64,000 nucleotides of DNA from a virus (IMGVR_UViG_3300045988_179014:280890-344889); one strand, 5' to 3'; numbered from the stretch's first letter, positions 1,631 through 43,393 are shown. Notes: a model not told the origin generated them from the letters alone. Program-made: numbers and translations.

Positions 1631-2110
1631 TCAACCAATTGTTTTCCACATCACTTGTATGGTTGAATAAAGTGGGTCGTCTTCAATGTTGTCATATTCA
1701 CAGAAGAAAATCTTTTTGGAGCCCCATTCAGAAACAACAACACCCATGTCTTCCTGTCCTGTACAGTTTGTTTCAGTAGGTGGGAGCGAAACAGCAGTTG
1801 GTATTTTGCTATCACGCACGGCTTCTCGGTATTGCCCAACCAAATCCAAATCTACTGTAGCCCCCTTGGATGTACTACCGTCACTGTACAAAGCCACAGA
1901 TTCCTCATCACAATAGACAACATCACCTCGCATTTTGCAGGAACGTTTCATCAAAGTGGCAATGGTGTCCTCAGATGGTTTCGGAAATGATGATTCTGTC
2001 CCATATGATGGAGTTGGTTCAGGTGATGATGACTCTGCGCTGGAAGAACAACCACCCACTCCTATCAAACAACACAAACCAATCAATCCTGTCACAATTC
2101 GTTTCAGCAT
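1631..2110 (-). CDS. Hypothetical lipoprotein with Ser/Pro-rich linker
   Basis: It has an N-terminal signal peptide with lipobox LIGVGGCSS followed by a low-complexity S/P/E-rich segment. No enzymatic motif was recognised. Confidence 0.45.
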   Translation of the reverse strand: MLKRIVTGLIGLCCLIGVGGCSSSAESSSPEPTPSYGTESSFPKPSEDTIATLMKRSCKMRGDVVYCDEESVALYSDGSTSKGATVDLDLVGQYREAVRDSKIPTAVSLPPTETNCTGQEDMGVVVSEWGSKKIFFCEYDNIEDDPLYSTIQVMWKTIG

Positions 2111-2157
2111 AAAACATGTCCCCTTCTTTTCACATACGATTGTTCTAAATATGCAGA

Positions 2158-2544
2158 TTACAATGATGCTTCGGCTAGTAAACGAGAAACCGCTACTATA
2201 TCAAATCCACGACTAAATTCTAGGTGAACTTGTCCTACACTGCTGTACCATAAATCCACTTCACTGTCCAAATCGACTGTTCCTGCCGTTTCAATGGACC
2301 AAGCTTGCAGTTTTTTGTACGGTAATGACGCGAATGCTTTCTTGGTGCCCGTCATGCCTTGAACATTCACAACAATAACGCGACGATTGGTAAAAACCAC
2401 ATAATCTCTTATTCCTTTGGCAGCAATCATAATGGTTTCATGATTGACCAGCAAAGGTTGAATATTTGCTTGAACTTCAACAGGATTAACTGGACCAAGT
2501 TTTACCAATGAGGAGTTTTTGAAATCAATCATGGCTTTCTCCAT
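2158..2544 (-). CDS. Bacterial PH-domain (bPH-like) protein
   Basis: The 128-aa ORF shows a pattern like RDYVVFTNRRVIVV that is reminiscent of YdbT/bPH domains. This is a weak assignment. Confidence 0.35.
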   Translation of the reverse strand: MEKAMIDFKNSSLVKLGPVNPVEVQANIQPLLVNHETIMIAAKGIRDYVVFTNRRVIVVNVQGMTGTKKAFASLPYKKLQAWSIETAGTVDLDSEVDLWYSSVGQVHLEFSRGFDIVAVSRLLAEASL

Positions 2545-2735
2545 TTCCGTAAAAGTAACGAATTATAGTTAAATCTTTCAACACATAGATTTTCTGGCAT
2601 CAAGCAGAAGAACCACAAGTATTCAATATTGGTTTATGATGATTCGATAAATAGATTCATTTCATCATAAACAATTTGTCTTTAACATATCTTTTAAACC
2701 GCTTAAGGATATCCTACAATTTGTTGATTATCGGG

Positions 2736-3926
2736 TCATCGTCTTGAAGAACGCCAAGAACCAGTCAACTTCCTGGCGGTATCAGTAATGGTTGCAATTT
2801 GTTCCTGAGTCAATCCAAACATTTTGTACAATTGTGGTTCCAATGGGCGGTTCCAACGAATGTGTGGATTGTCGCTGGAATAATCACCCAAGTCCGGAAC
2901 AAAAACACCCCAACGAGCTGATTTTCCACCACGACTTTCCTCCAACAAATACCTTACAAAATCAGTGTCAATATAAGCTTTGTAATTGTTGGCTTCTTCC
3001 TTGGTCGCAAAAGTCCCCACCATGAGCCAAGAAGCACCAACAATATGCTCATTGTCAACAACACGATAACTGGAAGTGGCAGGACGTTTACTTATCTGCC
3101 CTTGAGAGGACAGAACTTTCCATGATTCCATCAACTGGGTTTTTTCTGAAGTCCAATCCAAGAGAGAACCATCAATCCAATACTCCTGAACCCGTTTCTG
3201 TTTACCTGGAATATTGTTCCCCAAGTAAGCACGAACTGGACGAATGAAACGACCAGACCCTTCATGTATATTTCTCACTGCATCAGGATTCTGCTCCACC
3301 CAATTAGTGGGAAGACCAAACGCATTCACTTTGCAACGTCGCATGCTCACACTGTTGTAACCTTGTGCAAAAATTGTTTCCACAATATTCACAGCATCCC
3401 GGCTCAATGGCAGAATCTCTTTGTTTTTTGGGCGATTGACAGCGATTCCGTTAAGTTCTAAATGATTTGGTGTTTCATTGTTATTGTTCACAGTGACAAC
3501 AGCGACCCCATCCGGAATCGCCACACCTGGAAACAATGGGACCACAGAGCTTTCTTCACCATGAGGAAACCAGTCAATACTGATAGCAGATGAAAAAATG
3601 CGATTGGCAACACCATCATATCCTTTAGCGCGCTGCATCCAACGCCCCCCAGGAATAATTACCGAACCATGAATGCCCACATCAGCCACCAAATCATAAA
3701 AACACGGGAAAACACTGACCACATTACTGTCCCGACCTGATGTTGTTGGGGTACCAGTTGAATACTGATACGGTGGGTTGCTCGCTACAAAAGTATAATC
3801 AATGCTGTTGTCATTTTCCATGAGTTTCAGAGCTTCTTCAATCTGCCCGTTCAGCAGTAGAGTAGCTTTCTCCTCAACCGTCAAAGTGTTCATACTGTAG
3901 CTCCTTGACTTGGTTTCAACACCCAT
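2736..3926 (-). CDS. N6-adenine DNA methyltransferase C-terminal portion (motif IV NPPY to motif VIII, then a presumptive target-recognition domain)
   Basis: The motif FVASNPPYQY lies about 50 aa from the listed N-terminus. It is followed by FYDLVADV...GSVIIPGGRWM, which matches motifs V-VIII of gamma-class (Eco57I/TaqI-like) methyltransferases. No AdoMet-binding motif I is present in this ORF. It overlaps the upstream helicase ORF by 37 nt in another frame. Confidence 0.6.
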   Translation of the reverse strand: MGVETKSRSYSMNTLTVEEKATLLLNGQIEEALKLMENDNSIDYTFVASNPPYQYSTGTPTTSGRDSNVVSVFPCFYDLVADVGIHGSVIIPGGRWMQRAKGYDGVANRIFSSAISIDWFPHGEESSVVPLFPGVAIPDGVAVVTVNNNNETPNHLELNGIAVNRPKNKEILPLSRDAVNIVETIFAQGYNSVSMRRCKVNAFGLPTNWVEQNPDAVRNIHEGSGRFIRPVRAYLGNNIPGKQKRVQEYWIDGSLLDWTSEKTQLMESWKVLSSQGQISKRPATSSYRVVDNEHIVGASWLMVGTFATKEEANNYKAYIDTDFVRYLLEESRGGKSARWGVFVPDLGDYSSDNPHIRWNRPLEPQLYKMFGLTQEQIATITDTARKLTGSWRSSRR

Positions 3927-6900
3927 GCCATCAAACGCCTCATTTCTTCTTCAGACAATTTGCGTTTAACACCTGTATTGGTTGACACTTCAGCACACCT
4001 CAATGAACGTTGAATCTCCACCATATCCACTACTGTAATATTCAAGTCATAATCTTTACACCCTGCCAATACACGTTGCGCTATGGCTCTACCCTGTTGA
4101 CTACGAGAATTCACGAAAACCCTGTTCTCAACAATTTGTTTCCAGAGTTTGCGTTGAGCAACAGAATCCATGTCACGAACTGTTTTACCTGATTTCTGAA
4201 TTTCATGCATAAACATGTTCAAGGCGGCATACAACGGATAAAGGCCGGTTTTGGAGCTTGGGTCAAAGAATGTGGTGCTGTCCTGTCCCCACAAAACATC
4301 GTATTCGTCATTCCCTGTATGATTCCATTGAGGTTCTGGTTTCAACACCCCTTGACTGGAAACCACATCATCCCAGGAGTGCGTATTACCATCAGAGCAG
4401 TACCAGTTGCCTGTATCATCAACGAACCGAATCCCGTTGAAAGCATTCCCCATGTGCCTGTTCACAACCGCCCATGGAGTCAGTACAGTTTCACGGTCAG
4501 GATTACGGAAACTGGTAAACAGCTGTGTCAAATGTGCCGCTCGTTCCAGTGGGTCACAAGCATCTAAATCCAACACCTGTTCTCTCATCTTCGCACAAGC
4601 CCCATTGAAAACATCAACATCAAAATATGCCTTCACCACATCCCACATGTTCCGAGTAAACCCCTGAGGCATGAACTCGTCCCATGAAGTATCATCAATA
4701 TGGGTAGCAAAATTGTCAACTGTAAGAGGTTCTTTAGCTTCACTGGCAAAAATGAGCAAAGGAAGCCGCGAAGCAACAGCACGCAGAGTTTCCAAAATCA
4801 ATTGCGCATTTTGCTGGTCTTTAGCTTTGCTCTCATATGCATTGTTCACATCTGCATTGGTAACAGATTCATCACCTTCCAACAGCAGAATCCGTTTTCC
4901 TTTACGTGTCAGTTTGGACGCTGCAATACTGATTTCTTTTTTGGAGCTGTTGATGTTCAATGCTTGACGAATATCCTCCAGCTCTTTTGCTTGGGCCTTA
5001 GTTATGTCATGAATATTCAGGTCAAACAGTTTCCGGTGTGTAAAACCAGAGGAAACAATTTCAGCAATGAATACACGACGTAGTTCTTGCAACAAACTGT
5101 CAACATCATGTTTCACAAATCGTGCACCGTCATAGGAAATGATGGGCATATATGTCAACATGTCACCCAACACAGATGATTCTCTGTCATCTTTGTTCCT
5201 GTTCTTCTGTGCAATACCACTGGCGGTTTTCTCCAACATTTTCAATGAACGGTCTGGTGCGAAGTCGAAAACATACCCAACCTCTTTCTGACGCCCATCA
5301 GCCAAACTACCAACTGATTTGACCCGGAAAATGGTCTGCATATACTGGAGAGGTGAAGCCATGTTGCTGAGCATGAAAACAGCCGTCCACTCAGGTACAG
5401 TGGTTCCAGTAGTCAGTTTTTGCGCGGACAATGTGATAGTGCGTTCATTTTTGCGAATCGCTTCTTTAACTGCCAACAACGCGTCTCCGCCATCATTGTC
5501 ACCTGTTGCATTCACCACTGCAAATTCTGGATGTTGTGCTGCCAACATTTCATGCAATGCCACACATGCATCCACCGATGGCAACATCCAAAACGTATGA
5601 GCAAAATCAACTTTCGAATTGTTCCGGCTGAAAGGGAACAATTTATGGTCATCTTCATACTCATCATTGTAGAATATGAGGTTCAATAATTTTGCCACAT
5701 CTCGTGGGTTCTTGAACGGAGAAAAACTGTCATATACTCGTCCTTGAACTGAACGATTTTTGTCTATTTCAAAAAACTTTGCAAAACTGAAGTTGATTTT
5801 GCCATTTTCGAACGCATCGGCTACATCTGGGTTTTTGAGAGTGTCCAGAATGTCGTAGTGTCGGATTTCAATTCGTGGCAGCATTCCATATGGATTAACT
5901 TCTCCCGGGTATGGAACAGGGGCATGTTCTCCCAGTTCGTCCCATTGTTTACGAGCCAATTCCCAACGCTCTGAGGCACGCTGTTCATCAATATAATCCC
6001 AGTTGAAAACTTTATCATCAAATTCGTCAATGATGTTGAAAGGCGTTCCTGATAAATACAACCAGTAACGCCCCTGTAAGTTGTTCGCCAAACGTTCCGC
6101 AATTGGAGTTTTTGTTCCCTCATGACCCTCGTCCACAATAATCAAATCAAATTGCGTTGAGAACAGTTGAGCATTCTTTTCAAAAACGTTCTCTATTTCA
6201 ACAGAATCCTTGTTTGCTTCATCATTGACTCCAAACGACCCTCGAAGGTCTTGGATAGATGCAAAATAGTAGAATGGTTTTTCGCGGTCCAGTGAATCCC
6301 ATGAAACCCCGTACAGATTTTGTTTAGCACCGAACTGCCAATCAGATTTAGCCCCATACATTTTACGGAAATCTTCACTCCATCCAGCTGCAACCACAGG
6401 ACGATGAGTGATGATGAGAACTTTGCTTACATCCGGCATGGATTGCACCAGACTGTAGGATGTAAGCGTCTTCCCAAAACGCATGATGGCATTCCACAGG
6501 AACTTTTTGGGGCGTTCTACCGTACCTGACCGAAATATTTGTAGTGTTTCCGCTACTGCTCGTTTTTGTTCTGGACGTAAAACGATTTGTAGGGGCTTCT
6601 CGTCCATGTTGTCAATGAATGATTTGCGACCCTGTACTGCTTTGAATGCTTCAATGGCATTGTTCAGAGAAACCTCAAACCACTCTCCCGCGTTCTTGTC
6701 TTGACGGATGAATCGTTTTGAAAACCCTGACCGCAACAAAACTTCATGCACTTGGTAATCCCTGAACGCTTCATAACGTCCTGGAACTGAACTGGAGCGA
6801 ATACTGAGTGCCGTAAAAAGCAGTTCATATTTGACGTCAGCCGTTTTTGTCTGCTCGTCAATACGTGCTCGGGCTGCGGATTCAATTTCAGGCGATGAAA

Positions 6901-7078
6901 TCAAATCCCCATCAACCACTGTGGCTTCAGCTCGAATCTCTTCCAATATTTTAGAAGTGTGGTAAGTCGCATCCCCAATCTTCAACCGTCCTTGATGGTC
7001 CTGGTCGTTGATTGTATATATGTATAAAACCTTATAACTACCTGGAGACAAAGCTGTGTCCAGAATCGTAGCCGTCAT
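3890..7078 (-). CDS. Fusion protein: T5orf172 (GIY-YIG-like) N-terminal domain + SF2 (ResIII/SNF2-like) helicase + N-terminal part of N6-adenine methyltransferase (motifs X and I)
   Basis: The N-terminus YKVLYIYTIND...GRLKIGDAT resembles the T5orf172 domain. Helicase motifs are I AIMRFGKTLTS, II LIIVDEGHEG and III YLSGTPF. Near the C-terminus, TPWAVVNRHM resembles methyltransferase motif X and FFDPSSKTGLY is a weak motif I. A good SD-less start faces the 300-bp intergenic region. Confidence 0.6.
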   Translation of the reverse strand: MTATILDTALSPGSYKVLYIYTINDQDHQGRLKIGDATYHTSKILEEIRAEATVVDGDLISSPEIESAARARIDEQTKTADVKYELLFTALSIRSSSVPGRYEAFRDYQVHEVLLRSGFSKRFIRQDKNAGEWFEVSLNNAIEAFKAVQGRKSFIDNMDEKPLQIVLRPEQKRAVAETLQIFRSGTVERPKKFLWNAIMRFGKTLTSYSLVQSMPDVSKVLIITHRPVVAAGWSEDFRKMYGAKSDWQFGAKQNLYGVSWDSLDREKPFYYFASIQDLRGSFGVNDEANKDSVEIENVFEKNAQLFSTQFDLIIVDEGHEGTKTPIAERLANNLQGRYWLYLSGTPFNIIDEFDDKVFNWDYIDEQRASERWELARKQWDELGEHAPVPYPGEVNPYGMLPRIEIRHYDILDTLKNPDVADAFENGKINFSFAKFFEIDKNRSVQGRVYDSFSPFKNPRDVAKLLNLIFYNDEYEDDHKLFPFSRNNSKVDFAHTFWMLPSVDACVALHEMLAAQHPEFAVVNATGDNDGGDALLAVKEAIRKNERTITLSAQKLTTGTTVPEWTAVFMLSNMASPLQYMQTIFRVKSVGSLADGRQKEVGYVFDFAPDRSLKMLEKTASGIAQKNRNKDDRESSVLGDMLTYMPIISYDGARFVKHDVDSLLQELRRVFIAEIVSSGFTHRKLFDLNIHDITKAQAKELEDIRQALNINSSKKEISIAASKLTRKGKRILLLEGDESVTNADVNNAYESKAKDQQNAQLILETLRAVASRLPLLIFASEAKEPLTVDNFATHIDDTSWDEFMPQGFTRNMWDVVKAYFDVDVFNGACAKMREQVLDLDACDPLERAAHLTQLFTSFRNPDRETVLTPWAVVNRHMGNAFNGIRFVDDTGNWYCSDGNTHSWDDVVSSQGVLKPEPQWNHTGNDEYDVLWGQDSTTFFDPSSKTGLYPLYAALNMFMHEIQKSGKTVRDMDSVAQRKLWKQIVENRVFVNSRSQQGRAIAQRVLAGCKDYDLNITVVDMVEIQRSLRCAEVSTNTGVKRKLSEEEMRRLMAWVLKPSQGATV

Positions 7079-7568
7079 AAGGTATTCTCCTCTTAGTTGG
7101 TTGCATATTTATGAGGAATCATAGAAACCTCAAAGTTACACTAGCAAACTCCATTTTATTTGTCAAATACATAGAACTATAAGTAATGACAAAACTGATG
7201 ATTTTACATAATGCTCATCATCGTTTTCATCCTGTTCAGACATCTTGTTTCACCATGTTGTGTTAAACTGTCATCATCCTTGAATGGCATTAACCACAAA
7301 TAATGAATGAAGATTCAATTGTCAACATTTCATCACCACAGCATCATATGATGACATTTTGACGCAATGGAATCAAAACCATGGACCAAACCTGTAACGA
7401 CACAACGAAAGCAAAACATACGTTGTTTCATACCAGCCAACTTATTTCAACTGCGAATCGTCGTCCCCTTGTATTCATGCAAGTTTGTTTTTGTGCTACA
7501 AGAAACATGAGAAAAAGAAAGAATCATTCCAGTTGTGATAATTGTTTGAATTTGTCACAACCCAACAG

Positions 7569-8024
7569 TCAAAGAATGAAAACGTCTGTATCCATTTCTG
7601 AAGTACCATTGTTTCCCACAATATAAGTCACAGGGCTGGTCATCAGTAAGAAGTCATCTGTTACTGTATTTCCCGGATGAGCAAACAACGCTTTTTCTCT
7701 TGTCTGCAAATTGACCAGTACCATGTTGACATATAGATGATACTGACCATTGGATTGCTCTTGTTGCACCACCCAATGATTGGATTCAGGTAAAGGACAT
7801 ATTGTATACACACTTTTACTGAGAGTTTCAAATCTCATGGATGGAGGAACAGGCGATGTTCTCTGCAAATCTTTCATCACAGACACCCCATAATTGTTCA
7901 TGATGATGCTGTCAGCTGCCATCAATGCCATCTCGTAATCATTGAATCGTTGGTATGAACCATTGTCCCCTGACCATGGAACTGGATGAATATGCCCATG
8001 AGGATGTAAAACATATTTACTCAT
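7569..8024 (-). CDS. Hypothetical protein
   Basis: This is a 151-aa ORF on the strand of all its neighbours. No motifs were recognised. Confidence 0.35.
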   Translation of the reverse strand: MSKYVLHPHGHIHPVPWSGDNGSYQRFNDYEMALMAADSIIMNNYGVSVMKDLQRTSPVPPSMRFETLSKSVYTICPLPESNHWVVQQEQSNGQYHLYVNMVLVNLQTREKALFAHPGNTVTDDFLLMTSPVTYIVGNNGTSEMDTDVFIL

Positions 8025-18603: not shown

Positions 18604-20469
18604 TCAACGTGGGGAAGTTTTGATAATAGCCAGCAAAAACTGTAATAAACCCACAACCAGCATAACACTCAACACTAAAAGAAGTATTGGTCCATAAATG
18701 ATAGGGATAGGAACAAAACTCAACACTGTCTTACCTGGAGCTTCTTCTTTCTTCAAATGAGACAGGTTGGTATGTTTCGCTGTTTTTGCCCGGTCATGTA
18801 ATCCTGAAATCGCCAACACCATAGAGGCCAATGCGCCGGTTCCTGCACCAATCAATCCCCAAAAAACAAAAATCAGGTTTTGATACATGGGTTGTATGTA
18901 CGGGAGCACAAATTGTTGACCTATCAAAGGAACTACAACAATCATGGATACAGAAACCATAAACGCTGTAAGCAATCCCAAACCCAAAGCCCACGGAATG
19001 GCGATGTTTCTTGCAGGATGCCACCATGCTCGTGCAAAAGATGGAGTTTCCTCTGCCATACAGTGAAAAGCTAGTTTTGGATTATGTCTTAACAGGACTC
19101 GATATGGTGGACGTACACCCCATGAACCATCTGCATAATCCAACACCATCTTGCCCTTGATTTTCTTTGGATGTGATGGTGAAGAAGTTTTCGTTGCAGG
19201 CTGTGTACGAGGGGTTATAGGATTGGGAGACGACAACCCAGCCATATTGGGAATTTGTTTAGCAGATTTTGGAGAGCTAGACGAATTAGGAGAGGAAATA
19301 CGTTGAGGACTCTGTGAAGGAATATTTGGTAAAGCCCTAGGTGCCGGCCCAATTGATGATTCAGCATCCTGAAACTTCACTGAAGGTAGCTTCTTCTGGT
19401 CCGGTATTTTTGTTTTAGGCACTTCACGGGACCATGGGTCAAGATTACCAGCATCTTTGTGAACACACCAAGCACACTGTTTGTCTTTACTGTCAAACCA
19501 GTGCTGAGAAACTTTTGAACATTGAACCAACCTGGACAATACGTCATCCAGTAAAGAAATAAAGGTTTCAAGAGATGGCCGTTTTGTCGGGTCAGCTTGC
19601 AATGCTTTTACCATAGGGGTGTGAAGTATTGACGGGATAGCTCGTGTGGGTATACGAGGTACTGGTCGGAAATGCCGAGCTGACGAAGGATTCAAACCAG
19701 GAAGAATTGATTGACGAATTTTCTCAACCATAGAGGGGGGTTCGTTTTTCTCATCTGTAAAAATACCATCAGTGGGATGTGCACCACCAGTCAACATCTG
19801 AAACATGGCAACAACATATGCAAACGTGTCAGATGCTATGGTTCGTCGCTGGTCTTTGAGAGACCCATGTGTCAATTCTGCTGCTGTGTATTCCGGCTTA
19901 CCGACCATACACGGAAATACACGTCCATCTTTTGCAACAATCTGAGCTGAATCGGTATCAACAATGAAAACACTGGCATCGGTTCCCACGAAAATGTTGG
20001 ATTCATTGACATCACCAACACAATGCCCTGCTGTGTGAATGGCGTGTATTGCTACTGCCAGGTTACGGCTTGCGGTCAAAGCATACTGAACATCAAAACC
20101 ACTGGCAGTTCCTCTACGGTCGCGTGTATTGGACAATTCAGCCCATGAACGATAGTTCGATGAATCCAGTTTTACCATGAGATAGCCTTGAAACTTCCCA
20201 TGCTCCGCCAACAATGCCAACGGCCATGCCACAGAGTTCGAATCTGGGGGCATTGTTACCATGGCCACCAATTTTTGGGTTCTATCGCCTTCAGCAGGAT
20301 TGTGATAGATTTTGGCAACCAACATGGACGCGTCAGGAAGACCATCAAGTGAATGTGATTCAACATTGTAGACAGAACCTTCTCCACCTTTACCCAACGG
20401 TTCATCAGAAATAACCACTGAACCTTTATTTGTTGGGGTACGGCCTAGGAGTTTTCTACTCACATCCAT
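18604..20469 (-). CDS. Ser/Thr protein kinase with Pro-rich linker and C-terminal 4-TM anchor
   Basis: It has a Gly-loop LGKGGEGSVY, a Lys VAKIYH, a catalytic loop HCVGDVNESNIFV and DTDS (DFG-like). A P/S-rich segment runs about 370-430. Four hydrophobic helices lie in the last 170 aa. Confidence 0.7.
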   Translation of the reverse strand: MDVSRKLLGRTPTNKGSVVISDEPLGKGGEGSVYNVESHSLDGLPDASMLVAKIYHNPAEGDRTQKLVAMVTMPPDSNSVAWPLALLAEHGKFQGYLMVKLDSSNYRSWAELSNTRDRRGTASGFDVQYALTASRNLAVAIHAIHTAGHCVGDVNESNIFVGTDASVFIVDTDSAQIVAKDGRVFPCMVGKPEYTAAELTHGSLKDQRRTIASDTFAYVVAMFQMLTGGAHPTDGIFTDEKNEPPSMVEKIRQSILPGLNPSSARHFRPVPRIPTRAIPSILHTPMVKALQADPTKRPSLETFISLLDDVLSRLVQCSKVSQHWFDSKDKQCAWCVHKDAGNLDPWSREVPKTKIPDQKKLPSVKFQDAESSIGPAPRALPNIPSQSPQRISSPNSSSSPKSAKQIPNMAGLSSPNPITPRTQPATKTSSPSHPKKIKGKMVLDYADGSWGVRPPYRVLLRHNPKLAFHCMAEETPSFARAWWHPARNIAIPWALGLGLLTAFMVSVSMIVVVPLIGQQFVLPYIQPMYQNLIFVFWGLIGAGTGALASMVLAISGLHDRAKTAKHTNLSHLKKEEAPGKTVLSFVPIPIIYGPILLLVLSVMLVVGLLQFLLAIIKTSPR

Positions 20470-20525
20470 TCCTTCTGGTGTTTGTACATGATTACATCAA
20501 ATATCATCTACTTTATTCACCGAAG

Positions 20526-21443
20526 TTATGCTCCATGTTCTTTCAAAAACTTCATCGGGTCTTGGGAATGGTAAACATCTCCTGGTGTTGTTCCTTTCGG
20601 ATACCATTCAAAATGCAAGTGTGGACCAAAACTACGACCGGTATTACCAACAACTCCAAGTCTTTGTCCAGCTACCACTTTATCTCCTGGTTTGACTTCT
20701 ACATTGTTCAAATGGGCGTAAAGGAAAGCGTCCCCGTTTGCGATACGTAGAACCACATTGTTTCCAGCCCATCCGGAACTGATGGATGATTCAATAACAC
20801 CATCTGAAACTGCTTGAATTGGTGTTCCAAGTGGCGCTACCAAATCCTGCCCTGTATGATATGACGCCCAGTTGCCTCTAGCACCCCATTGAGCCCCTAA
20901 ACGATATGAACCAGCAGCTAAAGGGAACACTACTCGTGAAACGCTTTCAGAGGTTGTTGCTGCGGGTTCATGTCCCTGTGTAAATGTTTCAGCACGTTTC
21001 TGAGCTTCCTCGGTTTTACGTGCTTCTTCTGCTTTCTCTTCAGCTATGCGCTCATTTTCCCGTTTCTGGGCCAACTCTTCGTCCACTTTACGACGTTCCA
21101 GCATGTCTTGTTGTGCACGTTCGATAGAAGCCTGTACAGACAGCTCTTTTTCGCGTTGAGCTACTTGTTGTTTCAATGTTTCTGCTTCCACATCAAAAGA
21201 CTTATCATGTTTCTGCATCCATGATTGTTGTACTTGTTGTTGACCCGTGACTGAAGACTGCAAAGCTTCTTCACTGAGGTACGGTTTCGTCGTCCCCTTG
21301 ATTATGGATGTATCTGGAGACAAAGCATTTGCTGGGTAGGAAGGCATGGAAGCTGAACTCATGAACAACGGCAAAGCCCCAAGAAGAACATACCGTAACG
21401 TTTTGGGCATCTTTTTACGATTACTATTACTGTCAATACTCAT
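20526..21443 (-). CDS. Secreted M23 family metallopeptidase with coiled-coil N-region
   Basis: It has a signal peptide MPKTLRYVLLGALPLFMSSASMPSYPANA, a long E/K/Q-rich coiled coil, and an M23 signature GNTGRSFGPHLHFEW. Confidence 0.8.
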   Translation of the reverse strand: MSIDSNSNRKKMPKTLRYVLLGALPLFMSSASMPSYPANALSPDTSIIKGTTKPYLSEEALQSSVTGQQQVQQSWMQKHDKSFDVEAETLKQQVAQREKELSVQASIERAQQDMLERRKVDEELAQKRENERIAEEKAEEARKTEEAQKRAETFTQGHEPAATTSESVSRVVFPLAAGSYRLGAQWGARGNWASYHTGQDLVAPLGTPIQAVSDGVIESSISSGWAGNNVVLRIANGDAFLYAHLNNVEVKPGDKVVAGQRLGVVGNTGRSFGPHLHFEWYPKGTTPGDVYHSQDPMKFLKEHGA

Positions 21444-21519
21444 TTAAACAATTCTTTCAATCAACTCACAAAAAATGTGGAGTCATGTTGATACGGCATG
21501 ACTCCACACTGAGACGGTG

Positions 21520-22287
21520 CTAGCGATGAGCTATTACCAACGTTGTATCATCAACCACTTTCTCTTTATCATCCATATAATCTAGAAATGCTTGCACATC
21601 CATGCCATCATCTTCCAATGCTCTCTTCACAACAGGATTCCAAAACCCGGGGGAGGGAGCATTTTCAGCTATGGACACATTTTCCAACCCATCAGATGAC
21701 AATGAAATGGCAACAATAGGTTCATCACCTGAATAATACAATGGTTGGTAATTGTTGTTTCTACTTGTCAACAATGTGGTCAGATTCGCAAATTCGCCTA
21801 TTTTATCTGGTCGAATCAGAGTATGATGATTGTTTGCATATGACACAACCGCAAATGCGTCCCCAACCACTGCTACTGCCCATGTGTCACCACTGATAGC
21901 GGCAAGAGCAATCGTGCAACCTATTTCTTCATGGTCATCTCGGTCCAACAAGGCATGACGAGCGGCTTCCAAACCTTTTTGTACTGCACCCATTGTATCT
22001 ATGCCGTCATTGAGTGCATCCATGGTTTCTGCTACTGATGTGGATGCAGCGATAGAGGCTCCGATATCTGACAATCGCAAGCTCCCAGCACCATCAGCTA
22101 CCGCAACAACTGTATGTCCATTTTCCTGCAAACTGGCATATGCATCTTGGTTGTTTTTATTGTTTACTTTGTTATGGGGACCTGTTACAGTACCAGCATT
22201 GACAGTTACATTCAAGGAAGTCTCCCCTCTGTCGAGTACATCATGGGAGAAAATATCACTCCGAATATGAAAACCAGTCCAAATCAC
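21520..22287 (-). CDS. PP2C-family Ser/Thr phosphatase
   Basis: It has NQDA, VAVADGAGS, SGD, SSDGL and DDTTLV blocks in PP2C order. The start overlaps the last array gene by 32 nt. Confidence 0.65.
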   Translation of the reverse strand: MIWTGFHIRSDIFSHDVLDRGETSLNVTVNAGTVTGPHNKVNNKNNQDAYASLQENGHTVVAVADGAGSLRLSDIGASIAASTSVAETMDALNDGIDTMGAVQKGLEAARHALLDRDDHEEIGCTIALAAISGDTWAVAVVGDAFAVVSYANNHHTLIRPDKIGEFANLTTLLTSRNNNYQPLYYSGDEPIVAISLSSDGLENVSIAENAPSPGFWNPVVKRALEDDGMDVQAFLDYMDDKEKVVDDTTLVIAHR

Positions 22288-23401
22288 TAAGCTCCAATTT
22301 CAAAGATAATGGTAATTCTGGATTGGTTTCAGATAAGGAAACAATGTCTTCTTGCAGTTTGAGAGACTTGCACAATACTTGAACAACTAATTGTGGCGCT
22401 CCCTGAATATTGTTTTCTTCCAAATCTGACATGTGTTGCAACAAATCCTCAAAATCACTACTACCTAACTTGAGATAAAGGTAAACGAACGGACTAAGAG
22501 GGTTGTATCTACCATAGAAGACGGGAAGAGCCAATTGAGTTCTAGCTGTTATGGTATTGAAGTCATTGGTTTCTTCATATGTCATGGCACCTGATAAATA
22601 CGTCGGGTGAGGTTTTGGTGCACGATACTCATAGAAACCCATCATACAAGCTTTTTCACTGAAGTCGATAAGGAAATTTTGCCGTACTCGCGCTAAATGG
22701 AGTTTGGTATAGCGGTTATCCCATATATACCAGTTTGACTCCATTATTGCTTTGACTTGTTCCAGAGAATATGACAACATTTCTCGTTGTTCTTCAGGAG
22801 ACAAATACAAGAACATGGGAACAATTACACCCAGATAAATTTTTAAATCTGGATATGCTTTTGTCAGTAAGTATAAATTTTCAAGTGAGTACGGATTAGC
22901 TCGGTGTTGACAGGACTGGTTGTTGAAATATGGCATGTACCCGTCAAAATCAATTTGGGCTATGAATGGGTTTCTTAAATTATAGCGACTCTGCTGATGT
23001 CGCAAAAATGACCATTCAGTCAGGTGCTCTGATACATAGAAACCATGTTGCCATAGAATCAAAAGTTGCACCAGATGCCTTAACCGTTCTCGTTGATGTG
23101 GATAGTCGCAAATCAACGCCAAGACTCGCGAATCCTCATCATCAAGACGTAACTGTGGGTCATGAAAATGAGGGTTGAAATCTTCAGTAATTGGGCTCGT
23201 ATCTGGATTTTCTAGCAATGCAAAATCTTCACTCAACGTATTCAATTGTTGAAAGGACAAAGCGTCTTTGCTTATTATCAAACCACGAGTTGACATATCT
23301 GGAGTAAAATCACATACTTGACCATCTAAGGTAACAATGATTTCTTCAGAAGACAACGCCAACAATTGCTCTTGTGTTATAGGTTTGATTGAATGACTCA
23401 T
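22256..23401 (-). CDS. Tandem paralog family member 1 (381 aa), uncharacterised family
   Basis: It shares all family blocks: VTLDGQVCDF, LALICDYP, NPYSLENLYLL, LSPEEQREM, AMTYEETNDF, YLYLKLGSSDFEDLL and ELPLSLKLELSDLDW. An SD GAGGAAAAG precedes the ATG. Confidence 0.8.
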   Translation of the reverse strand: MSHSIKPITQEQLLALSSEEIIVTLDGQVCDFTPDMSTRGLIISKDALSFQQLNTLSEDFALLENPDTSPITEDFNPHFHDPQLRLDDEDSRVLALICDYPHQRERLRHLVQLLILWQHGFYVSEHLTEWSFLRHQQSRYNLRNPFIAQIDFDGYMPYFNNQSCQHRANPYSLENLYLLTKAYPDLKIYLGVIVPMFLYLSPEEQREMLSYSLEQVKAIMESNWYIWDNRYTKLHLARVRQNFLIDFSEKACMMGFYEYRAPKPHPTYLSGAMTYEETNDFNTITARTQLALPVFYGRYNPLSPFVYLYLKLGSSDFEDLLQHMSDLEENNIQGAPQLVVQVLCKSLKLQEDIVSLSETNPELPLSLKLELSDLDWFSYSE

Positions 23402-23466
23402 GTACTTTTCCTCTATTTAGACCAATCTTTACTGGGTTTCTTCCGAATAATGGTTTTACTCGGTTG

Positions 23467-24639
23467 TCATTTCTTGTAGGAGAACCAATCCAAGTCGCTT
23501 AGTTCCAGTTTCAATGACATTGGCAACTCAGGGTTTTCCTGTGATATGTCAACAATCAATTCTTGCAGTTCAAAAGAATCCAACAGTGTACTAATTACAG
23601 ATTCTTTCGTCCCAGAAACCTCATCCTGCTGATTTAACTCATACACGTATCGTATAAAAGCTTCAAAATCAGCACTACCCAATTTAAGGTACAGGTAAAT
23701 GAACAGTTCTGGTACTCCACGTTTGCTGGTGAGATACTCAATTGGAAACATCAACGGGAACCGAGATACAATTGAATTGAAATCATTGGCCTCATCAGGT
23801 GTCATTGAACCAGAGTTTTCGGTTTTGACTGATGATGCCCTATATGAGTCTATGAATGAGAAACAAGCTAAGCTACCAGTAGAAATAGGGTACTTGTTCC
23901 GTATTCGTTCCAGATGCAGTTGAACGTAGCGTTCATCATCCAGGTACCAATACGATGTTGCCAATATTTCCATTTGTGCTGGGGTGTAGGACATGATTTC
24001 TTCTTGCTCTTCTTGTGGTAAACACATGAAAAACTGTTCTAGTGTTTTAGGGTGGAAGAAGACATCAGGATACATGTTTCTCATCCTGTACAAGTTTTCC
24101 AAGAAGTAAGGATTGGCACGATGCTCGCAAGCTAATTCATGGAAACGGGTTATCAAGTTTGCATTAAACATGCGGACCATGGCGAAAGGGGCGAAACCTA
24201 AAACACGACTCTGGTATTTAGCCAACGAATGTTCCGTGACTGCTTCTGATACATAAACACCATGTTGCCAATGAACCATAAGTTGAAGTAAGCGCTCTAA
24301 CCGTTCTATCTCAAGTGGATGGCAACAAACTAACTTCAACACCCGTACCTGTTCATCATCAAGACATAGTTGTGGTGTATGAAAATGCTGAAAACTGTTA
24401 GCGGGCTTTTTCAACTTTGACATACTTTGAACAGTTGTCAGGTCGGAACTCAATTTTACCAGTTGTTGAACTGACAAACCATTATTGGGTATTACCAAAC
24501 CTTGAGTACTCGTGTCAATACTGGAATCAAAATCCAATATTTGGCCTTCTAGCGTAACCATGATGTATTCACTAGTTTCTGATAACCCCAAGGAATTCTG
24601 TTCCTCACAAACGCACATGATAGCATTCTTCCAACACAA
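23467..24639 (-). CDS. Tandem paralog family member 2 (390 aa)
   Basis: It shares the family blocks VTLEGQILDFDS, LVCCHP, NPYFLENLY, LPQEEQEEIMSYT, YLYLKLGSADFEAF and ELPMSLKLELSDLDWFSY. Confidence 0.8.
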   Translation of the reverse strand: MCWKNAIMCVCEEQNSLGLSETSEYIMVTLEGQILDFDSSIDTSTQGLVIPNNGLSVQQLVKLSSDLTTVQSMSKLKKPANSFQHFHTPQLCLDDEQVRVLKLVCCHPLEIERLERLLQLMVHWQHGVYVSEAVTEHSLAKYQSRVLGFAPFAMVRMFNANLITRFHELACEHRANPYFLENLYRMRNMYPDVFFHPKTLEQFFMCLPQEEQEEIMSYTPAQMEILATSYWYLDDERYVQLHLERIRNKYPISTGSLACFSFIDSYRASSVKTENSGSMTPDEANDFNSIVSRFPLMFPIEYLTSKRGVPELFIYLYLKLGSADFEAFIRYVYELNQQDEVSGTKESVISTLLDSFELQELIVDISQENPELPMSLKLELSDLDWFSYKK

Positions 24640-24660
24640 ATCCAGTTTTCAAAACAACCC

Positions 24661-25815
24661 TTAATAGGATTGCACTCGTCTCAAATAGTCACCCAAATCA
24701 AACAACTCCAATTTCAGAGATAGTGGCAGTTCTGCGTCATGGTTGGATATAGCAATAATCTCATCCTGCAATTCGAGAGAATCAGCTATAATATTTAGTG
24801 TATGCCCCTTTCTCTCGAAGAATGTTGCCATATCCTGTTTTTGCATATACTGCAACAAGTCCTCGAAGGCACTACTACCCAACTTGAGGTAAAGATACAT
24901 CAGCAGGTGTACGATATGTTCGTACAAGAAATCATCGTATTCCAAGTTTTCTATGATTCTTTGAAAATCTTTTGCCTCCTCAATGGTCATCGCATAGGAT
25001 GTACGTATTCTTCTATGCGGCATTGAGGTCTCAAACGTGAATAGAATCAGTGGTAGATTCTTTCTCACGCGTTCCAAATGCAATTGCAGATATCGTGTGT
25101 TATCAGCGCACCAATCCGAATCCATCATTGCCCGCACCTGATTCTCGGTATGAGAATGAACTAGCTCTTCCTGCTCCTCTTTTGAAAGATGCATAAACAC
25201 ATCCACCATATTGCGAGGAGGGAATCTGATATCAGGATACTTTTCCACCAATGAATACAAATTCTTCAATGAATGTGGGTCAGGAGAATGACTGTCAATC
25301 CATATATTGAACCAACACAAAAACCCATATCCGCAATCAGCCCTATCTATTTTCACCATGAACGGACTGACTTGATAGGAGTCATAGTGTTCATGAAAAC
25401 TTGCCAACGATTTGTTCAGCATCTTCTTAGACACATGTATGCCATGCTGCCTAAGGATAATAAACTGTTCCAAATGAGGCAATCGTTCTTTTTGAGGGGA
25501 ATGGTCACAAATCAATCTCAGGACTTTTGCATCTTTCCCCTCAAAATGCAACAATGGCGCGTGAAAGTGAAGCGCCTCCAGATACGATGATTCCCTAGCC
25601 CGAGCAATACGCTTTCTTATCCATTTGATGTCTTTGCTCAGTTTTTCTATCCTTTTTGATGAGAACATATTGCATGGAACTACTAATCCCACATCCTTTA
25701 CATGTGCTGACTCGAATTTACAAACATCTCCATCCAAAGTAATGAGGACTTTTTGAGAATTGGACTTTTCCATCATGACAGCACTCCTCTTGGGCGTCCT
25801 TTCTATGCGTTCCAA
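24661..25815 (-). CDS. Tandem paralog family member 3 (384 aa)
   Basis: It shares the family blocks ITLDGDVCKFES, LICDHSPQKER, LSKEEQEELVHSHT, YLYLKLGSSAFEDLLQY and ELPLSLKLELFDLGDY. Confidence 0.8.
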   Translation of the reverse strand: MERIERTPKRSAVMMEKSNSQKVLITLDGDVCKFESAHVKDVGLVVPCNMFSSKRIEKLSKDIKWIRKRIARARESSYLEALHFHAPLLHFEGKDAKVLRLICDHSPQKERLPHLEQFIILRQHGIHVSKKMLNKSLASFHEHYDSYQVSPFMVKIDRADCGYGFLCWFNIWIDSHSPDPHSLKNLYSLVEKYPDIRFPPRNMVDVFMHLSKEEQEELVHSHTENQVRAMMDSDWCADNTRYLQLHLERVRKNLPLILFTFETSMPHRRIRTSYAMTIEEAKDFQRIIENLEYDDFLYEHIVHLLMYLYLKLGSSAFEDLLQYMQKQDMATFFERKGHTLNIIADSLELQDEIIAISNHDAELPLSLKLELFDLGDYLRRVQSY

Positions 25816-26125
25816 TACAAATTTATTGGGGTTCTATACATAGAGAATACCAGCCAAGACCATTAAGTTCAAGCTTCAGTAGCATAAACACTGTAGAGCC
25901 AACCTTGATGCTGTACCAATCTTGTCCTGTAATTTTGGTTTTTTACAGGACACGCAGAAACGCTAATTTCGGATGTCCAAATTTTAGCACTTTGAGTGAA
26001 ATTCGATGATGAGCATTTTTCTCCATACGCTCTCGAACTGATTTTCCTGTTTTTAAGGACTTTAATCAGTTTTGTCTTATTATCCTTGACGGGAAAACCA
26101 TGCAGAAACACTAATCCTGAAACTT

Positions 26126-27379
26126 CTATAGATAGTAATTTTGAATCAAAATCCTATCCTGTCTGCTATATCGACCACTCATTAACCAGTTGTCATATGC
26201 TTTTTCTCCATATGCTTGAACGAGTCTTTCATTCTCAGTTTTCACATATGAATACCAATCCAAATCACTAAGTTCGAGTTTCAGCGACATGGGCAATGCG
26301 GAGTCAAGTTTTGATGCTGCAATAATTGCTTCCTGCAATTCAACCGAATGATACAAAATATGAACCATAGGGCTCTTGTCGTGTCTATCATTTCTATCAT
26401 TGTTTTGCATATATCTCAACAATTCCTCAAAATCGTTACCCCCGAGTCTGAGGTATAGATAAACAAGCAATCTTATGAATACTACTTGAGAAGCTACTTC
26501 ATAACAATGGGGAACAACAAATCCGAGTCGAGCTATAATGTCTTCAAACTCATTCATTTCGTCAAGATTTAGTGCACATATGCGCATTGGTTCATCACCA
26601 CAACATACTGGTACTTTAAGCGTCATGTCATAAGCATCAATGCCTTTCCTTATACGCGAGAAATGAATCTTTCGATAACGCGCATCAGAGAAATACCAAT
26701 CCCCTTGAAAAACAGTTGTTCTAAGACCTAAAGAACCCCCAAATACTGGGTACACTTCTTGATTCTTTTGAAACAAACAGAGAAGCGCTGGTAGTACCCA
26801 AATACCATGACCAAACATGCCTCTTCTGCGCTTCTTGGCAAACTCTTCCAGTAGCTCCAACACATGAGCATTAACAGGATGGTCACACACCCAGTCATTG
26901 AAGTCTGGTTTTTTAACCCACTCATCATAACTGATTTCAAACATTACGAATGGAATATTTTCTTTAATAACATTATCCAGTACTGAGAGTAGAACTGAAT
27001 CGCGCCAGGTTGACAATGACTGCTTCGCCAGACGTTCAGAAACATAAATATTATGTTGTCGAAACACTATGAATTGTTTCAAATGGGATAATCGTGCTTG
27101 TGAATCTGGCCAATCCAGAATCGCTCTCAGCACTTTTAAGTCTTCCCCTTCAAGACTTAACTGCGGTTTGTGAAAATGGGATTCGTCTTTAGAAGCAAAA
27201 GAATTTCCCAATTCGGCCATATCAGCAGCTAACACCTTCAGTTGTTTATTTGATAACCCTCTACGGGGTATCAACAACCCATATGTTTCATTTGCTGATT
27301 GCGCCCATCTATGTATTTTGCCATCTAATGAAACTAAGATGGGAGAAACAAACTTTCCTAAAAGGTGCTTAAACAACAC
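26126..27379 (-). CDS. Tandem paralog family member 4 (417 aa) with C-terminal extension
   Basis: It has the family blocks plus a roughly 35-aa extra tail after LSDLDWYSYV. The 310-bp spacer downstream contains degenerate copies of this tail. Confidence 0.75.
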   Translation of the reverse strand: MLFKHLLGKFVSPILVSLDGKIHRWAQSANETYGLLIPRRGLSNKQLKVLAADMAELGNSFASKDESHFHKPQLSLEGEDLKVLRAILDWPDSQARLSHLKQFIVFRQHNIYVSERLAKQSLSTWRDSVLLSVLDNVIKENIPFVMFEISYDEWVKKPDFNDWVCDHPVNAHVLELLEEFAKKRRRGMFGHGIWVLPALLCLFQKNQEVYPVFGGSLGLRTTVFQGDWYFSDARYRKIHFSRIRKGIDAYDMTLKVPVCCGDEPMRICALNLDEMNEFEDIIARLGFVVPHCYEVASQVVFIRLLVYLYLRLGGNDFEELLRYMQNNDRNDRHDKSPMVHILYHSVELQEAIIAASKLDSALPMSLKLELSDLDWYSYVKTENERLVQAYGEKAYDNWLMSGRYSRQDRILIQNYYL

Positions 27380-27455
27380 AAAGCTCCCCTATTTTATAGA
27401 CTAAATTGATAATCACAATTCTAGTCTCAGGGGAGCCACGTGTCAATTCTGGCTA

Positions 27456-28511
27456 TCAAAACACCAGCTGTACCAACTCTTCATTGGGGTCTTCCTCAGC
27501 CAACTGCTGAAGAAGCTTTTCAAACTTTTTGCTACCGAGTCTGAGGTAGCAATACAAAAACCTTGTAACAAAAACCTTACTGAGATAATAATATTTATTT
27601 GGAATTCTGAAACTGGTGCAGTCCAGAATTTCCTGAAGTTCAGCTGCCTCCTCTGCGGTCAGGACATGATTTGGCAGAAGAGTACAATCATCTTCCTTCT
27701 TGTACCATGCCCTTAGAACATTTTTCTTGATGGGAAGATTCTCTTCCTGCACTCGTTTTCTGTGAAGCTCCCGGTACTCAGGATTCGCGAAGTCCCAATC
27801 AGCTTCCAGAGTACGCTTGATATGGGATGGCTCCCAGAGACGAAGCTGCTGCTGTTGCTCATCTGTCAGCCCCACGAACCATTTAAAAGTAGTGAATTGA
27901 ATCTCTTGTACTTCTGGGGTTTTTTCAAGAAGAGCCCATAGATTCTCTAGGACATGTGGATTCACCTCATGAGAATCCAGGCAAAGTGACGTTATAGACC
28001 GTTTCGGAGGATTTTTAACATATGGCGCAAATGGTACGTTTTGACTCATTGTTTTCATATCCCAATACCTTGACATAGCGGCCAAGGATATTTTCGTCAG
28101 TTCGGTTGGCACATACACCCCGTTCTGCCGAAAAATCAAGAAGTCAATCAGGTGCGCTACGCGTACATATTTATGCGGTTGGTCACAAATCAGTTTCAAT
28201 GTTTCCAGGTCATCATCCTGGATATGTAGAGGATTGTTGAAATGACATCTTGATTCCAAAGGTTCCAAGGAATTTCTGTGATGGTTGCCCAAATCAGTTC
28301 TAAGAGTATTCAATTGGTCCTCAGTCAGAGCACCTTTGGACAACACAATACCAACCACTTTGGTCTTTTTACCAAGGTGAACAGTGCCATCTAGGCCAAC
28401 CGTAATGAAGTGAGTACCCCCACAAGCCGTAATGAACTTCTCAAACTGTCGTACAATGGCTTCCATTTCCGCGTTTCCCTTTCTGCGATTCGTATGAGAA
28501 CAGACTATCAC
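27456..28511 (-). CDS. Tandem paralog family member 5 (351 aa), divergent, lacks C-terminal LPLSL motif
   Basis: It has LKLICDQPHK, NPHVLENLWALL and FLYCYLRLGSKKFEKLLQQL. It ends early at EELVQLVF. It shares a 4-nt ATGA overlap with member 6. Confidence 0.7.
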   Translation of the reverse strand: MIVCSHTNRRKGNAEMEAIVRQFEKFITACGGTHFITVGLDGTVHLGKKTKVVGIVLSKGALTEDQLNTLRTDLGNHHRNSLEPLESRCHFNNPLHIQDDDLETLKLICDQPHKYVRVAHLIDFLIFRQNGVYVPTELTKISLAAMSRYWDMKTMSQNVPFAPYVKNPPKRSITSLCLDSHEVNPHVLENLWALLEKTPEVQEIQFTTFKWFVGLTDEQQQQLRLWEPSHIKRTLEADWDFANPEYRELHRKRVQEENLPIKKNVLRAWYKKEDDCTLLPNHVLTAEEAAELQEILDCTSFRIPNKYYYLSKVFVTRFLYCYLRLGSKKFEKLLQQLAEEDPNEELVQLVF

Positions 28512-29674: not shown

Positions 29675-29714
29675 TTTCCAGTTTCATTGATGTGAGTGTG
29701 TTTTCAGATTTCAC

Positions 29715-30863: not shown

Positions 30864-30907
30864 AATATTTGTGCATCCTGATTGATGTAATTATTTAACA
30901 GTTAAAC

Positions 30908-32065: not shown

Positions 32066-32099
32066 CTAGGCCATTTACAGGATTGAAAAACGACATTAC

Positions 32100-33194: not shown

Positions 33195-33233
33195 AACACT
33201 ACTCCTTTACCCTATTGACTCAATGACATCAGC

Positions 33234-34385: not shown

Positions 34386-34439
34386 GATGCTGTATTCTCA
34401 CTGCCGTTAAAAGATTCTTGAAATTAAAGCTGGCATTAT

Positions 34440-35534: not shown

Positions 35535-35592
35535 AATGGTCTTTCGTCTTCATCAAGTTGATAGCATAATAATAGTACAGAGATAGAACTGA

Positions 35593-36717: not shown

Positions 36718-36733
36718 ACTATAGTACGAAAAC

Positions 36734-38997: not shown

Positions 38998-39028
38998 AGT
39001 TACCTCTTAATGCAGTTCACAATTGTAT

Positions 39029-43308: not shown

Positions 43309-43393
43309 GGTAGATTTCCTTCTGATAGCCTATTTTCTACCATGATACCCAAATCATAATATTGCACTGTTTCAAAAACTGCTCATTAATCCA

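Follow-up and report, generated by a model that had tools for sequence, protein, structure and literature searches.

Organization of the Two Genes

Two overlapping open reading frames (ORFs) lie end to end on the minus strand of IMGVR_UViG_3300045988_179014:280890-344889 (hereafter the window, meaning the whole stretch of 64,000 nucleotides (nt) that was analyzed). In our view they probably specify one ATP-dependent enzyme of the restriction-modification type, made of two subunits and similar in layout to the Type ISP enzymes. The ORFs are those described in an earlier note made from the sequence alone, namely one of 1062 residues (3890..7078) followed, in another frame, by one of at most 396 residues (2736..3926). 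The 37-nt overlap given in that note, however, has to be revised. The likely start of the small gene is its second ATG, at 3893, which yields a protein of 385 residues, overlaps the TGA of the large ORF as ATGA (4 nt) and is preceded, 7 nt upstream, by an AAGGAG ribosome site. This start is also the one used by gene callers in three public sources. Site and overlap together suggest that the small chain is translated by coupling to the large gene. The joined length of the two ORFs is 1447 residues.

The reading frame changes by -1 at 3890-3893, and the small ORF's frame stays open through the 57 nt that precede its own start. The overlap of the two ORFs contains neither a slippery heptamer of the form X XXY YYZ nor a homopolymer of 5 or more, which makes both programmed frameshifting and slippage-based phase variation unlikely. 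The large ORF ends in GTA TGA, where the P-site codon is not slippery. A promoter and terminator scan of 2400-7700 returned counts not above the shuffled expectation. The features of both genes are collected in Table 1.

Table 1. Features of the two genes, with positions counted from the first letter of the window
Feature	Position	Strand	Residues	Basis
Gene for the putative large subunit: T5orf172 head, superfamily 2 (SF2) ATPase, linker, cofactor-binding methyltransferase half	3890..7078	-	1062	ORF, translation, collinearity with fused relatives, dN/dS
T5orf172 (GIY-YIG-related) nuclease-like domain (YKVLYIY, KIGDAT, GEWF)	6635..7024	-	19-148	Pfam PF10544
SF2 helicase-like ATPase core	5159..6595	-	~162-640	Pfam ResIII, PADLOC, match to family hidden Markov model (HMM)
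Walker A MRFGKT	6467-6484	-
DEGHEG	6116-6133	-
SGTP	6041-6052	-
QTIFRVKS	5315-5338	-
Linker ("coupler" position) from ATPase to methyltransferase	4712..5158	-	~641-789 (about 150)	Conserved in family alignment A1
Methyltransferase N-half: helical lead-in, motif X, motif-I-like segment, β2, β3, start of long linker	3893..4711	-	790-1062
Motif X, TPWAVVNRHM	4451-4480	-	867-876
Motif-I-like segment, FFDPSSKTGLYPLY	4229-4270	-	937-950
β2, VFVNSR	4103-4120	-
β3, ITVVD	4025-4039	-
Junction	3890..3906	-		Sequence
Shine-Dalgarno (SD) AAGGAG	3901-3906	-		Sequence
ATGA	3890-3893	-		Sequence
Gene for the putative small subunit: linker helices, NPPY catalytic half, target-recognition domain (TRD)	2736..3893	-	385 + stop	Gene-caller start, dN/dS, AlphaFold
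Methyltransferase C-half	3453..3806	-	~30-147	Invariant NPPYQ, partial Eco57I profile, Foldseek
β4 and NPPYQ	3765-3779	-
VIIPGGRW	3639-3662	-
FPGVAIPDGVAVV	3495-3533	-
TaqI-like TRD	2739..3452	-	~148-385	Fold matches
LYKMFGLTQEQI, at the end of the TRD	2796-2831	-

Domains of the Large Protein

The N-terminal domain scores 20.8 bits against PF10544 in the whole protein and 26.2 bits when residues 1-173 are taken in isolation (cut-off 20), over profile positions 2-100 of 101. T5orf172 is also the best Pfam family for the N-termini of 9 of 10 relatives, and six of its residues (Y19, K33, G35, R72, E132 and W133) are invariant in an alignment of 42 sequences. No Mrr or PD-(D/E)xK match was returned by Pfam for this N-terminus. 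The ATPase core matches ResIII with E=4.7e-17, and its Walker A, DExH, motif III (SGTP) and motif VI (QTIFRV) segments are invariant columns of the same 42-sequence alignment. Residues 338-642 are in addition recognized by the PADLOC Type IIG model REase_MTase_IIG PDLC03626 (E=9e-17). The linker that follows has no Pfam or PDB assignment.

A methyltransferase in the C-terminus of the large ORF was not detected directly by HMMER against Pfam. It is visible by transitive homology, through the Eco57I profile of compact relatives, and by fold. Its motif I reads D-P-S-S-K-T-G-L-Y-P, with SKTG where GxG would be expected. This segment had been noticed earlier as a weak motif I; it is indeed there, but its weakness is not a local defect, since the family consensus is D-[IP]-[NS]-S-K-T-[AG]-L-Y-P, with K, L, Y and P invariant. 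Motif II (VFVNSR) has no acidic residue, and the D of motif III and the NPPY of motif IV are present.

The Small Protein

The AlphaFold model of the small protein (mean predicted local distance difference test score, pLDDT, 87) matched CamA, BrxX/PglX, MmeI, M.TaqI and M.BseCI in Foldseek; for CamA, M.TaqI and M.BseCI the matches cover the TRDs. NPPYQ occupies residues 39-43 of the 385-residue form, and N39, P40, P41, Y42 and Q43 are all invariant. The small ORF carries no motif I of its own. Against Eco57I (PF07669) it scores 12.6 bits alone (cut-off 25.3), and the joined sequence gives no match at E<=0.1; 15 of 16 family members are above the cut-off, the best at 1e-32. Among the stand-alone relatives of the small ORF, 8 of 9 scanned pass Eco57I, on profile positions ~57-165 of 171 only (P0174 scores 23.3 bits).

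The TRD is 45% identical to the C-terminal module of the fused protein P0040 and about 24% identical to the modules of the nearest relatives of the N-part, which indicates module shuffling.

One Family Architecture in Two Chains

More than 3349 proteins match the large ORF, and most are single chains of 1310-1550 residues with ResIII and Eco57I domains. In a scan of species-representative genomes, 592 of the first 600 pattern matches checked encode a relative. The hosts include Bacteroidales, Clostridia, Akkermansia, Treponema and Saccharibacteria, among others. In the source annotations, members of the family appear only as Eco57I-domain, helicase or hypothetical proteins, and PADLOC files them under Type IIG.

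The large ORF is collinear with residues 1 to ~1100 of fused relatives of 1444-1531 residues (45-48% identity), and the small ORF with their C-termini. Joined, the two align end to end with 41 fused relatives at 31-48% identity; nothing is lost or duplicated where they meet, and every invariant residue of the family alignment is kept in the window. Homology runs on across the junction, as seen from WVLKPSQGATV/MNTLTVEEKATLLL in the window (the slash marks the junction) and WVFNGKGTNVDGSTLTPEDKAAMLL in the fused protein P0009. In compact fused relatives, the whole Eco57I profile (1-171) maps to joined residues 985-1183, so that the ORF boundary, at 1062, cuts the domain.

When residues 786-1062 of the large ORF were joined to the small ORF and modeled by AlphaFold as one chain, the model had a pLDDT of 83 and a predicted template modeling score (pTM) of 0.80. 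The large ORF supplies β1-β3 and the small ORF β4 onward, and the junction falls in a disordered loop with pLDDT <50 (model residues 275-279). Comparison of this region with known folds gave listed figures of 17.5 for CamA, 16.0 for the Type I HsdM, 15.3 for LlaBIII, 15.1 for PglX, 13.9 for MmeI and 12.9 for TaqI. The model aligns with 169 of the 196 residues of a minimal complete class I methyltransferase, and both halves are required for this.

The main lines of the earlier note thus stand. A T5orf172 head (above the PF10544 cut-off) and a complete SF2 core (ResIII, E=5e-17) are present in the large ORF, the motif X segment TPWAVVNRHM lies near its C-terminus, and the order of head, helicase, methyltransferase cut between motifs I-III and IV, and TRD was borne out by Pfam, by the alignment with fused relatives and by structure prediction. 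The summed length, put there at about 1460 residues, is about 1450. The note had also named two findings that would speak against a divided methyltransferase: a large ORF without a recognizable motif X/I half, and a small ORF that is complete by itself. Neither describes these proteins, as transitive profile mapping and fold recover the N-half in the large ORF, and the relatives of the small ORF match only the later part of the Eco57I profile.

Variation among Strains

Three strain lineages (the window, L091 and L093) have an identical junction. It is carried by at least 15 strain variants, which stem from independent oral metagenomes. Between strains, the ratio of nonsynonymous to synonymous substitution rates (dN/dS) is 0.08-0.09 for the large gene, at a dS of 0.16-0.21, and 0.17-0.18 for the small gene, at a dS of 0.11 where the small genes differ; both genes are under purifying selection. 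Variants were collected from protein clusters at 90% identity, with 15 listed per cluster. The large protein has 17 distinct variants, and 14 of the 15 listed are 1059-1062 residues long, the other being a 289-residue fragment on a 917-nt contig; the small protein has 20, and all 15 listed are 385 residues long. The junction recurs in independent assemblies from ENA, JGI and Logan. Given the same junction and the full-length variants in these independent assemblies, an assembly error is excluded, and decay is strongly argued against.

The window and L091 differ by ~5% over the first ~3000 nt of the large gene and by ~3.5% over the whole 7.1-kb alignment. Over the last ~190 nt of the large gene and the whole small gene, there is 1 mismatch in ~1340 nt (~2736-4078). 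This segment looks like a recent recombination tract that moved the junction and the small subunit between strains.

Recurrence of the Split

Breaks at the same place are found in other members of the family. Seven proteins, P0018, P0021, P0028, P0029, P0032 and P0036 (1069-1179 residues) and P0045 (1113 residues), end just before NPPY, which places their breaks in the same motif III-IV linker, though elsewhere along it. At locus L009, a gene for 1150 residues is followed, with a 4-nt overlap, by an Eco57I-domain gene for 385 residues. At L010, a gene for 1113 residues is followed by two small genes with overlaps of 11 and 4 nt and good ribosome sites. In a neighbor-joining tree of the N-parts, which carries no support values, split forms are scattered among fused ones. 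The linker from motif III to NPPY measures 68-135 residues in the clade that contains the splits versus 38-42 in the compact clade.

The gene order can also be reversed. In L096, L097 and L103, the small gene comes first and is followed by a large gene for 1084-1117 residues with T5orf172, helicase and methyltransferase N-half (TPKAVVKHMV, DLYMKSGLY). Frameshifting of a fused gene could not give this order.

Over their first 40 residues, the two small subunits of L010 share 62% identity, which falls to about 20% beyond. Their first 28 residues are common at the protein level, and the synonymous sites differ, a pattern that fits selection for a common docking element rather than recent gene conversion.

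The compact clade has disrupted genes in 5 of 80 representative genomes, with nonsense codons or frameshifts at scattered positions, and this is the appearance of true pseudogenes. Two of these loci, L038 and L072, had been considered as fissions at domain borders and were rejected upon finding in-frame TAA nonsense codons; together with the frameshifted L035, L066 and L070, they are probable pseudogenes.

Stand-Alone Small Genes

An exhaustive profile search with the small module gave 1388 matches. Among the best 150, 79 are stand-alone and 27 belong to fused proteins of 1000 residues or more. The stand-alone proteins have 325-400 residues and start 2-40 residues before NPPY, whose median position is 18 in these 79. 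Their genes follow split large genes, precede large genes, stand next to fused enzymes, or form arrays. Extra copies beside fused enzymes occur in L006 (two copies and a fragment), L098 (one direct and one inverted) and L104. Arrays of three small genes with no large gene within 5-10 kb occur in L002, L003, L007 and L008, and the array paralogues have dN/dS values of 0.10-0.21. At the syntenic locus of a sister species of lower GC content, a small-gene array is present and the large gene is absent, with no remnant; no remnants of large genes were found at the orphan small-gene loci L001-L005 either.

Some of these loci deserve a separate description. In L006, an ORF of 324 residues (4684-5658) lies between the fused enzyme and the extra small modules; its N-terminus is GIY-YIG-like (YTYKLS...YYLGVR), and it has some ten CxxC...H...C repeats rich in Cys. 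An adjoining ORF of 84 residues is a fragment of a small-module C-terminus. In L098 (2059-8198), a fused enzyme of 1306 residues is followed by one direct and one opposite-strand small module, a layout in keeping with inversional switching of specificity, which has been reported for Eco57I-domain genes (PMC9881135). In L008 (1320-4545), three small modules in a row stand beside genes for DUF3841, a YqaJ exonuclease, an HNH protein, an S-adenosylmethionine synthetase and a fused gyrase-like protein, a context that looks phage-like or mobile-element-like.

Proposed Two-Subunit Enzyme and Alternatives

We consider a genuine two-chain enzyme the likely product of the two ORFs. The large chain would carry the T5orf172 nuclease-like head, an SF2 translocase-type ATPase, the linker and β1-β3 of a γ-class N6-adenine methyltransferase with motifs X and I-III; the small chain would add two linker helices, β4-β7 with the NPPY adenine pocket, and a TaqI-like recognition domain. 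The break between β3 and β4 would thus divide the Rossmann sheet, with its cofactor side on one chain and its target side on the other, and a catalytic site would exist only in the complex, with the chains docked over the β1/β4 seam. In this arrangement the small chain would be a subunit that can detach and that brings both specificity and the catalytic loop. If Type ISP enzymes are a guide (PMC4666363, PMC3553950), the assembled enzyme is expected to recognize an asymmetric site and hemi-methylate host DNA, at one adenine in one strand; on unmodified DNA, it would translocate at the expense of ATP and then cut with its N-terminal nuclease.

Several points weigh against this proposal. Assembly of the chains, methyl transfer, translocation driven by ATP, cleavage and a role in defense are all properties that we infer, and the joined model, folded as one chain, does not bear on the docking of two. 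Cofactor binding is uncertain for the whole family, split or fused, judging from a motif I that lacks GxG and a motif II that lacks an acidic residue. Close homologues of the small gene persist under purifying selection without a large gene within 5-10 kb (for instance at the syntenic sister-species locus, L001 and L007), so the small protein may not strictly need this partner, and the extra small genes beside fused enzymes are unexplained by a simple heterodimer model.

Of the three options left open by the earlier note, selection on both genes, recurrent breaks in the linker, reversed gene order and the lack of frameshift-prone sequence favor the two-chain enzyme over inactivation and frameshifting. 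The reading as a pseudogene, in which a single-chain enzyme was interrupted by a frameshift or an assembly error, is suggested by the single-chain state of most relatives, by the fact that one base would restore the frame and by the decay that does occur in the family, in 5 of 80 representative genomes. It nevertheless appears very improbable in view of a junction shared by the ENA, JGI and Logan assemblies, of 17 and 20 variants whose listed members are full length bar the 289-residue fragment, and of dN/dS values of 0.08-0.18 at a dS of 0.11-0.21 accumulated after the split. The perfect SD site and the stop/start overlap also speak against a pseudogene, as do the independent breaks in the same ~60-residue linker of a ~1450-residue protein, for which the probability by chance is ~0.002 for two further events. 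Programmed ribosomal frameshifting, by which a single fused protein would be made at the overlap, seems hardly any more credible. The ORFs do overlap, with the small frame open 57 nt upstream of its start, and the overlap contains an SD-like sequence of a kind that can stimulate frameshifting in some genes, but the required -1 shift would have to occur with no heptamer, no homopolymer of 5 or more and no slippery P-site codon in GTA TGA. Moreover, other split lineages differ in junction sequence and overlap by 4 or 11 nt, and the permuted order in L096, L097 and L103 is beyond rescue by frameshifting.

It is unlikely, though less so than either of these, that both proteins are functional and yet form no joint methyltransferase. 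The large protein would then be a methyltransferase-less nuclease/translocase, and the small ones autonomous NPPY and recognition proteins, acting alone or with some other partner, for example as DNA-binding or base-flipping pseudo-enzymes. Such autonomy would agree with the non-canonical motif I, with the stand-alone state of the majority class (79 of the 150 best representatives), with the arrays of three that have no large gene nearby and dN/dS values of 0.10-0.21, and with the sister-species locus, where a small gene is present and neither large gene nor remnant is. However, half a Rossmann fold, with four strands and an exposed β4 edge, is not likely to be stable or to catalyze a reaction by itself; translational coupling of small to large genes is seen at six loci or more, in both gene orders; and the N-half of the large protein is under strong purifying selection. 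The orphan-array contigs are also short, so the partner may sit elsewhere; the L104 and L006 genomes carry the enzyme together with small genes.

Beyond the two-subunit enzyme itself, we propose with considerable reserve that the small ORF belongs to a large, undescribed class of detachable half-methyltransferase and recognition subunits that dock in trans on the cofactor half of a nuclease-motor subunit. The arrays support exchangeable specificity subunits, and they also keep alive the possibility of small proteins independent of the large subunit. If docking in trans is real, one motor could be served by several interchangeable specificities, as at L010, with two small genes after the split gene, in the arrays of L002, L003, L007 and L008, and with the extra copies of L006, L098 and L104; restriction-modification specificity would then be diversified by subunit exchange across a split catalytic fold.

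Should the two chains assemble, they would be a natural counterpart of the split methyltransferases made by engineers, with cofactor and target halves that separate and re-associate and a target half that carries all the sequence specificity, and hence a natural scaffold for programmable methylation. Assembly would also explain how specificity changes in an abundant, unstudied family of motor-driven restriction enzymes of gut and oral Bacteroidales, Clostridia, Akkermansia and Saccharibacteria. Hundreds of genes for ~350 residues that start at NPPY and are annotated as "Eco57I-domain" or "hypothetical" probably encode subunits rather than fragments. Nor should a restriction-modification gene be labeled a pseudogene simply because it is split.

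Genomic Setting

The window is chromosomal, and genes for NucS, a bacterial PH-domain protein, a thioredoxin-reductase-like protein, NrdI and RseP are among the neighbors. NucS, at 495-1169 on the plus strand, has both of its domains (E=1e-16 to 1e-20) and is encoded here at only ~42% GC. An origin in a mobile element was rejected, as a megablast search of 2000-8000 against phage and plasmid collections gave no match. Identical or near-identical proteins come from metagenomes only, and from human oral ones where a label is given. The upstream genes for 151 and 487 residues were considered as parts of the system and dismissed, the 487-residue gene and the trxB-like gene being syntenic in a sister species that has no large gene.

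By tblastn, no other copies of the small module were found in the window. On the minus strand, 22256-40180 holds a tandem array of about 14 paralogues of 350-417 residues, with fragments at 36858-38997, which is unrelated to the split enzyme. Its members were discarded as candidate small modules on account of blastp values of E>1, the lack of a Pfam match and a different N-terminal motif (like "IVTLDGEVxDFDS...GLVLP..ALS..QL"). The flanks of the array (18604-22287 and 42286-44092) encode a vWA protein, a DUF4379 zinc-finger protein, a PP2C phosphatase, an M23 peptidase and a Ser/Thr kinase.

Comparison with Known Systems

The Type ISP enzymes LlaGI and LlaBIII are the closest mechanistic analogues. 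They resemble the window proteins in module order, size and the fold of the methyltransferase-TRD region, and the window has the SF2 ATPase with intact motifs and the γ-class N6-adenine methyltransferase followed by a TRD that are typical of the type. The differences are that Type ISP enzymes have an Mrr-type PD-(D/E)xK head where the window has T5orf172, that they are one polypeptide where the window has two ORFs in different frames, with a junction kept across strains, and that motif I of the window lacks GxG. Type ISP enzymes are further defined by translocating on ATP from an asymmetric site and cleaving when two of them collide. No match to LlaGI or LlaBIII came from phmmer (both ORFs) or from the 42-sequence profile in hmmsearch, with limits of E<=1 and, for the small ORF, E<=10, and searches of PDB chains with each ORF (phmmer) and with that profile gave nothing relevant, so fold comparison was needed. 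The Type ISP-like label of the earlier note therefore draws a fair analogy, but it does not make the proteins members of that type, given two chains, no Mrr nuclease and no detectable sequence homology.

The window's own family is that of the T5orf172-ResIII-Eco57I proteins (PDLC03626), with which it is collinear over all modules, conserved residues included. Members are almost all one chain of 1310-1550 residues, whereas the window is divided in the linker between motifs III and IV. We found no paper characterizing this family in open-access text. Large endonuclease-helicase-methyltransferase-TRD polypeptides were said by Morgan et al. in 2009 to "have received little attention" (PMC2731913), and such enzymes are mentioned only in passing by Smith et al. 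(PMC3553950).

The same set of components, judged by published domain content and not by sequence, is found in the DnmA(YeeA)-YeeB-YeeC systems of Bacillus subtilis and Vibrio, where an MmeI-like methyltransferase/TRD protein, an SF2 helicase and a T5orf172/GIY-YIG protein are encoded by separate genes (PMC2731913, PMC9973331). In those systems the methyltransferase is undivided, and nuclease and helicase each have a gene of their own; in the window, nuclease and helicase share a chain with one half of the methyltransferase, and a second chain holds the other half.

Natural two-chain methyltransferases that we found in the open-access literature are C5 enzymes only, namely M.AquI and M.EcoHK31I, in which two polypeptides, from adjacent or overlapping genes, make up one methyltransferase fold (PMC3404938, PMC2836561). 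In these C5-cytosine enzymes the cut lies in the variable region or at motif IX. The window protein, in contrast, is of the N6-adenine γ class, is cut between motifs III and IV in the middle of the Rossmann sheet, and has its whole TRD on the small chain; no natural γ-class N6-adenine methyltransferase cut at the β3/β4 seam was described in the open-access text found.

An exchangeable recognition module, as in the window family with its extra copies (L006, L010, L098 with one inverted, and L104), is also known from the Type I HsdS subunit, the BcgI S subunit and the invertible or silent C-terminal cassettes of Type IIG, BREX PglX and Eco57I enzymes, and Eco57I-domain genes are enriched among the targets of programmed inversion (PMC9881135). 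The extra copies in the window family are distinct in that most are in direct orientation, that each is a complete ORF equipped with a start codon and an SD site of its own, and that they bring with them half of a catalytic domain, whereas HsdS has no catalytic part.

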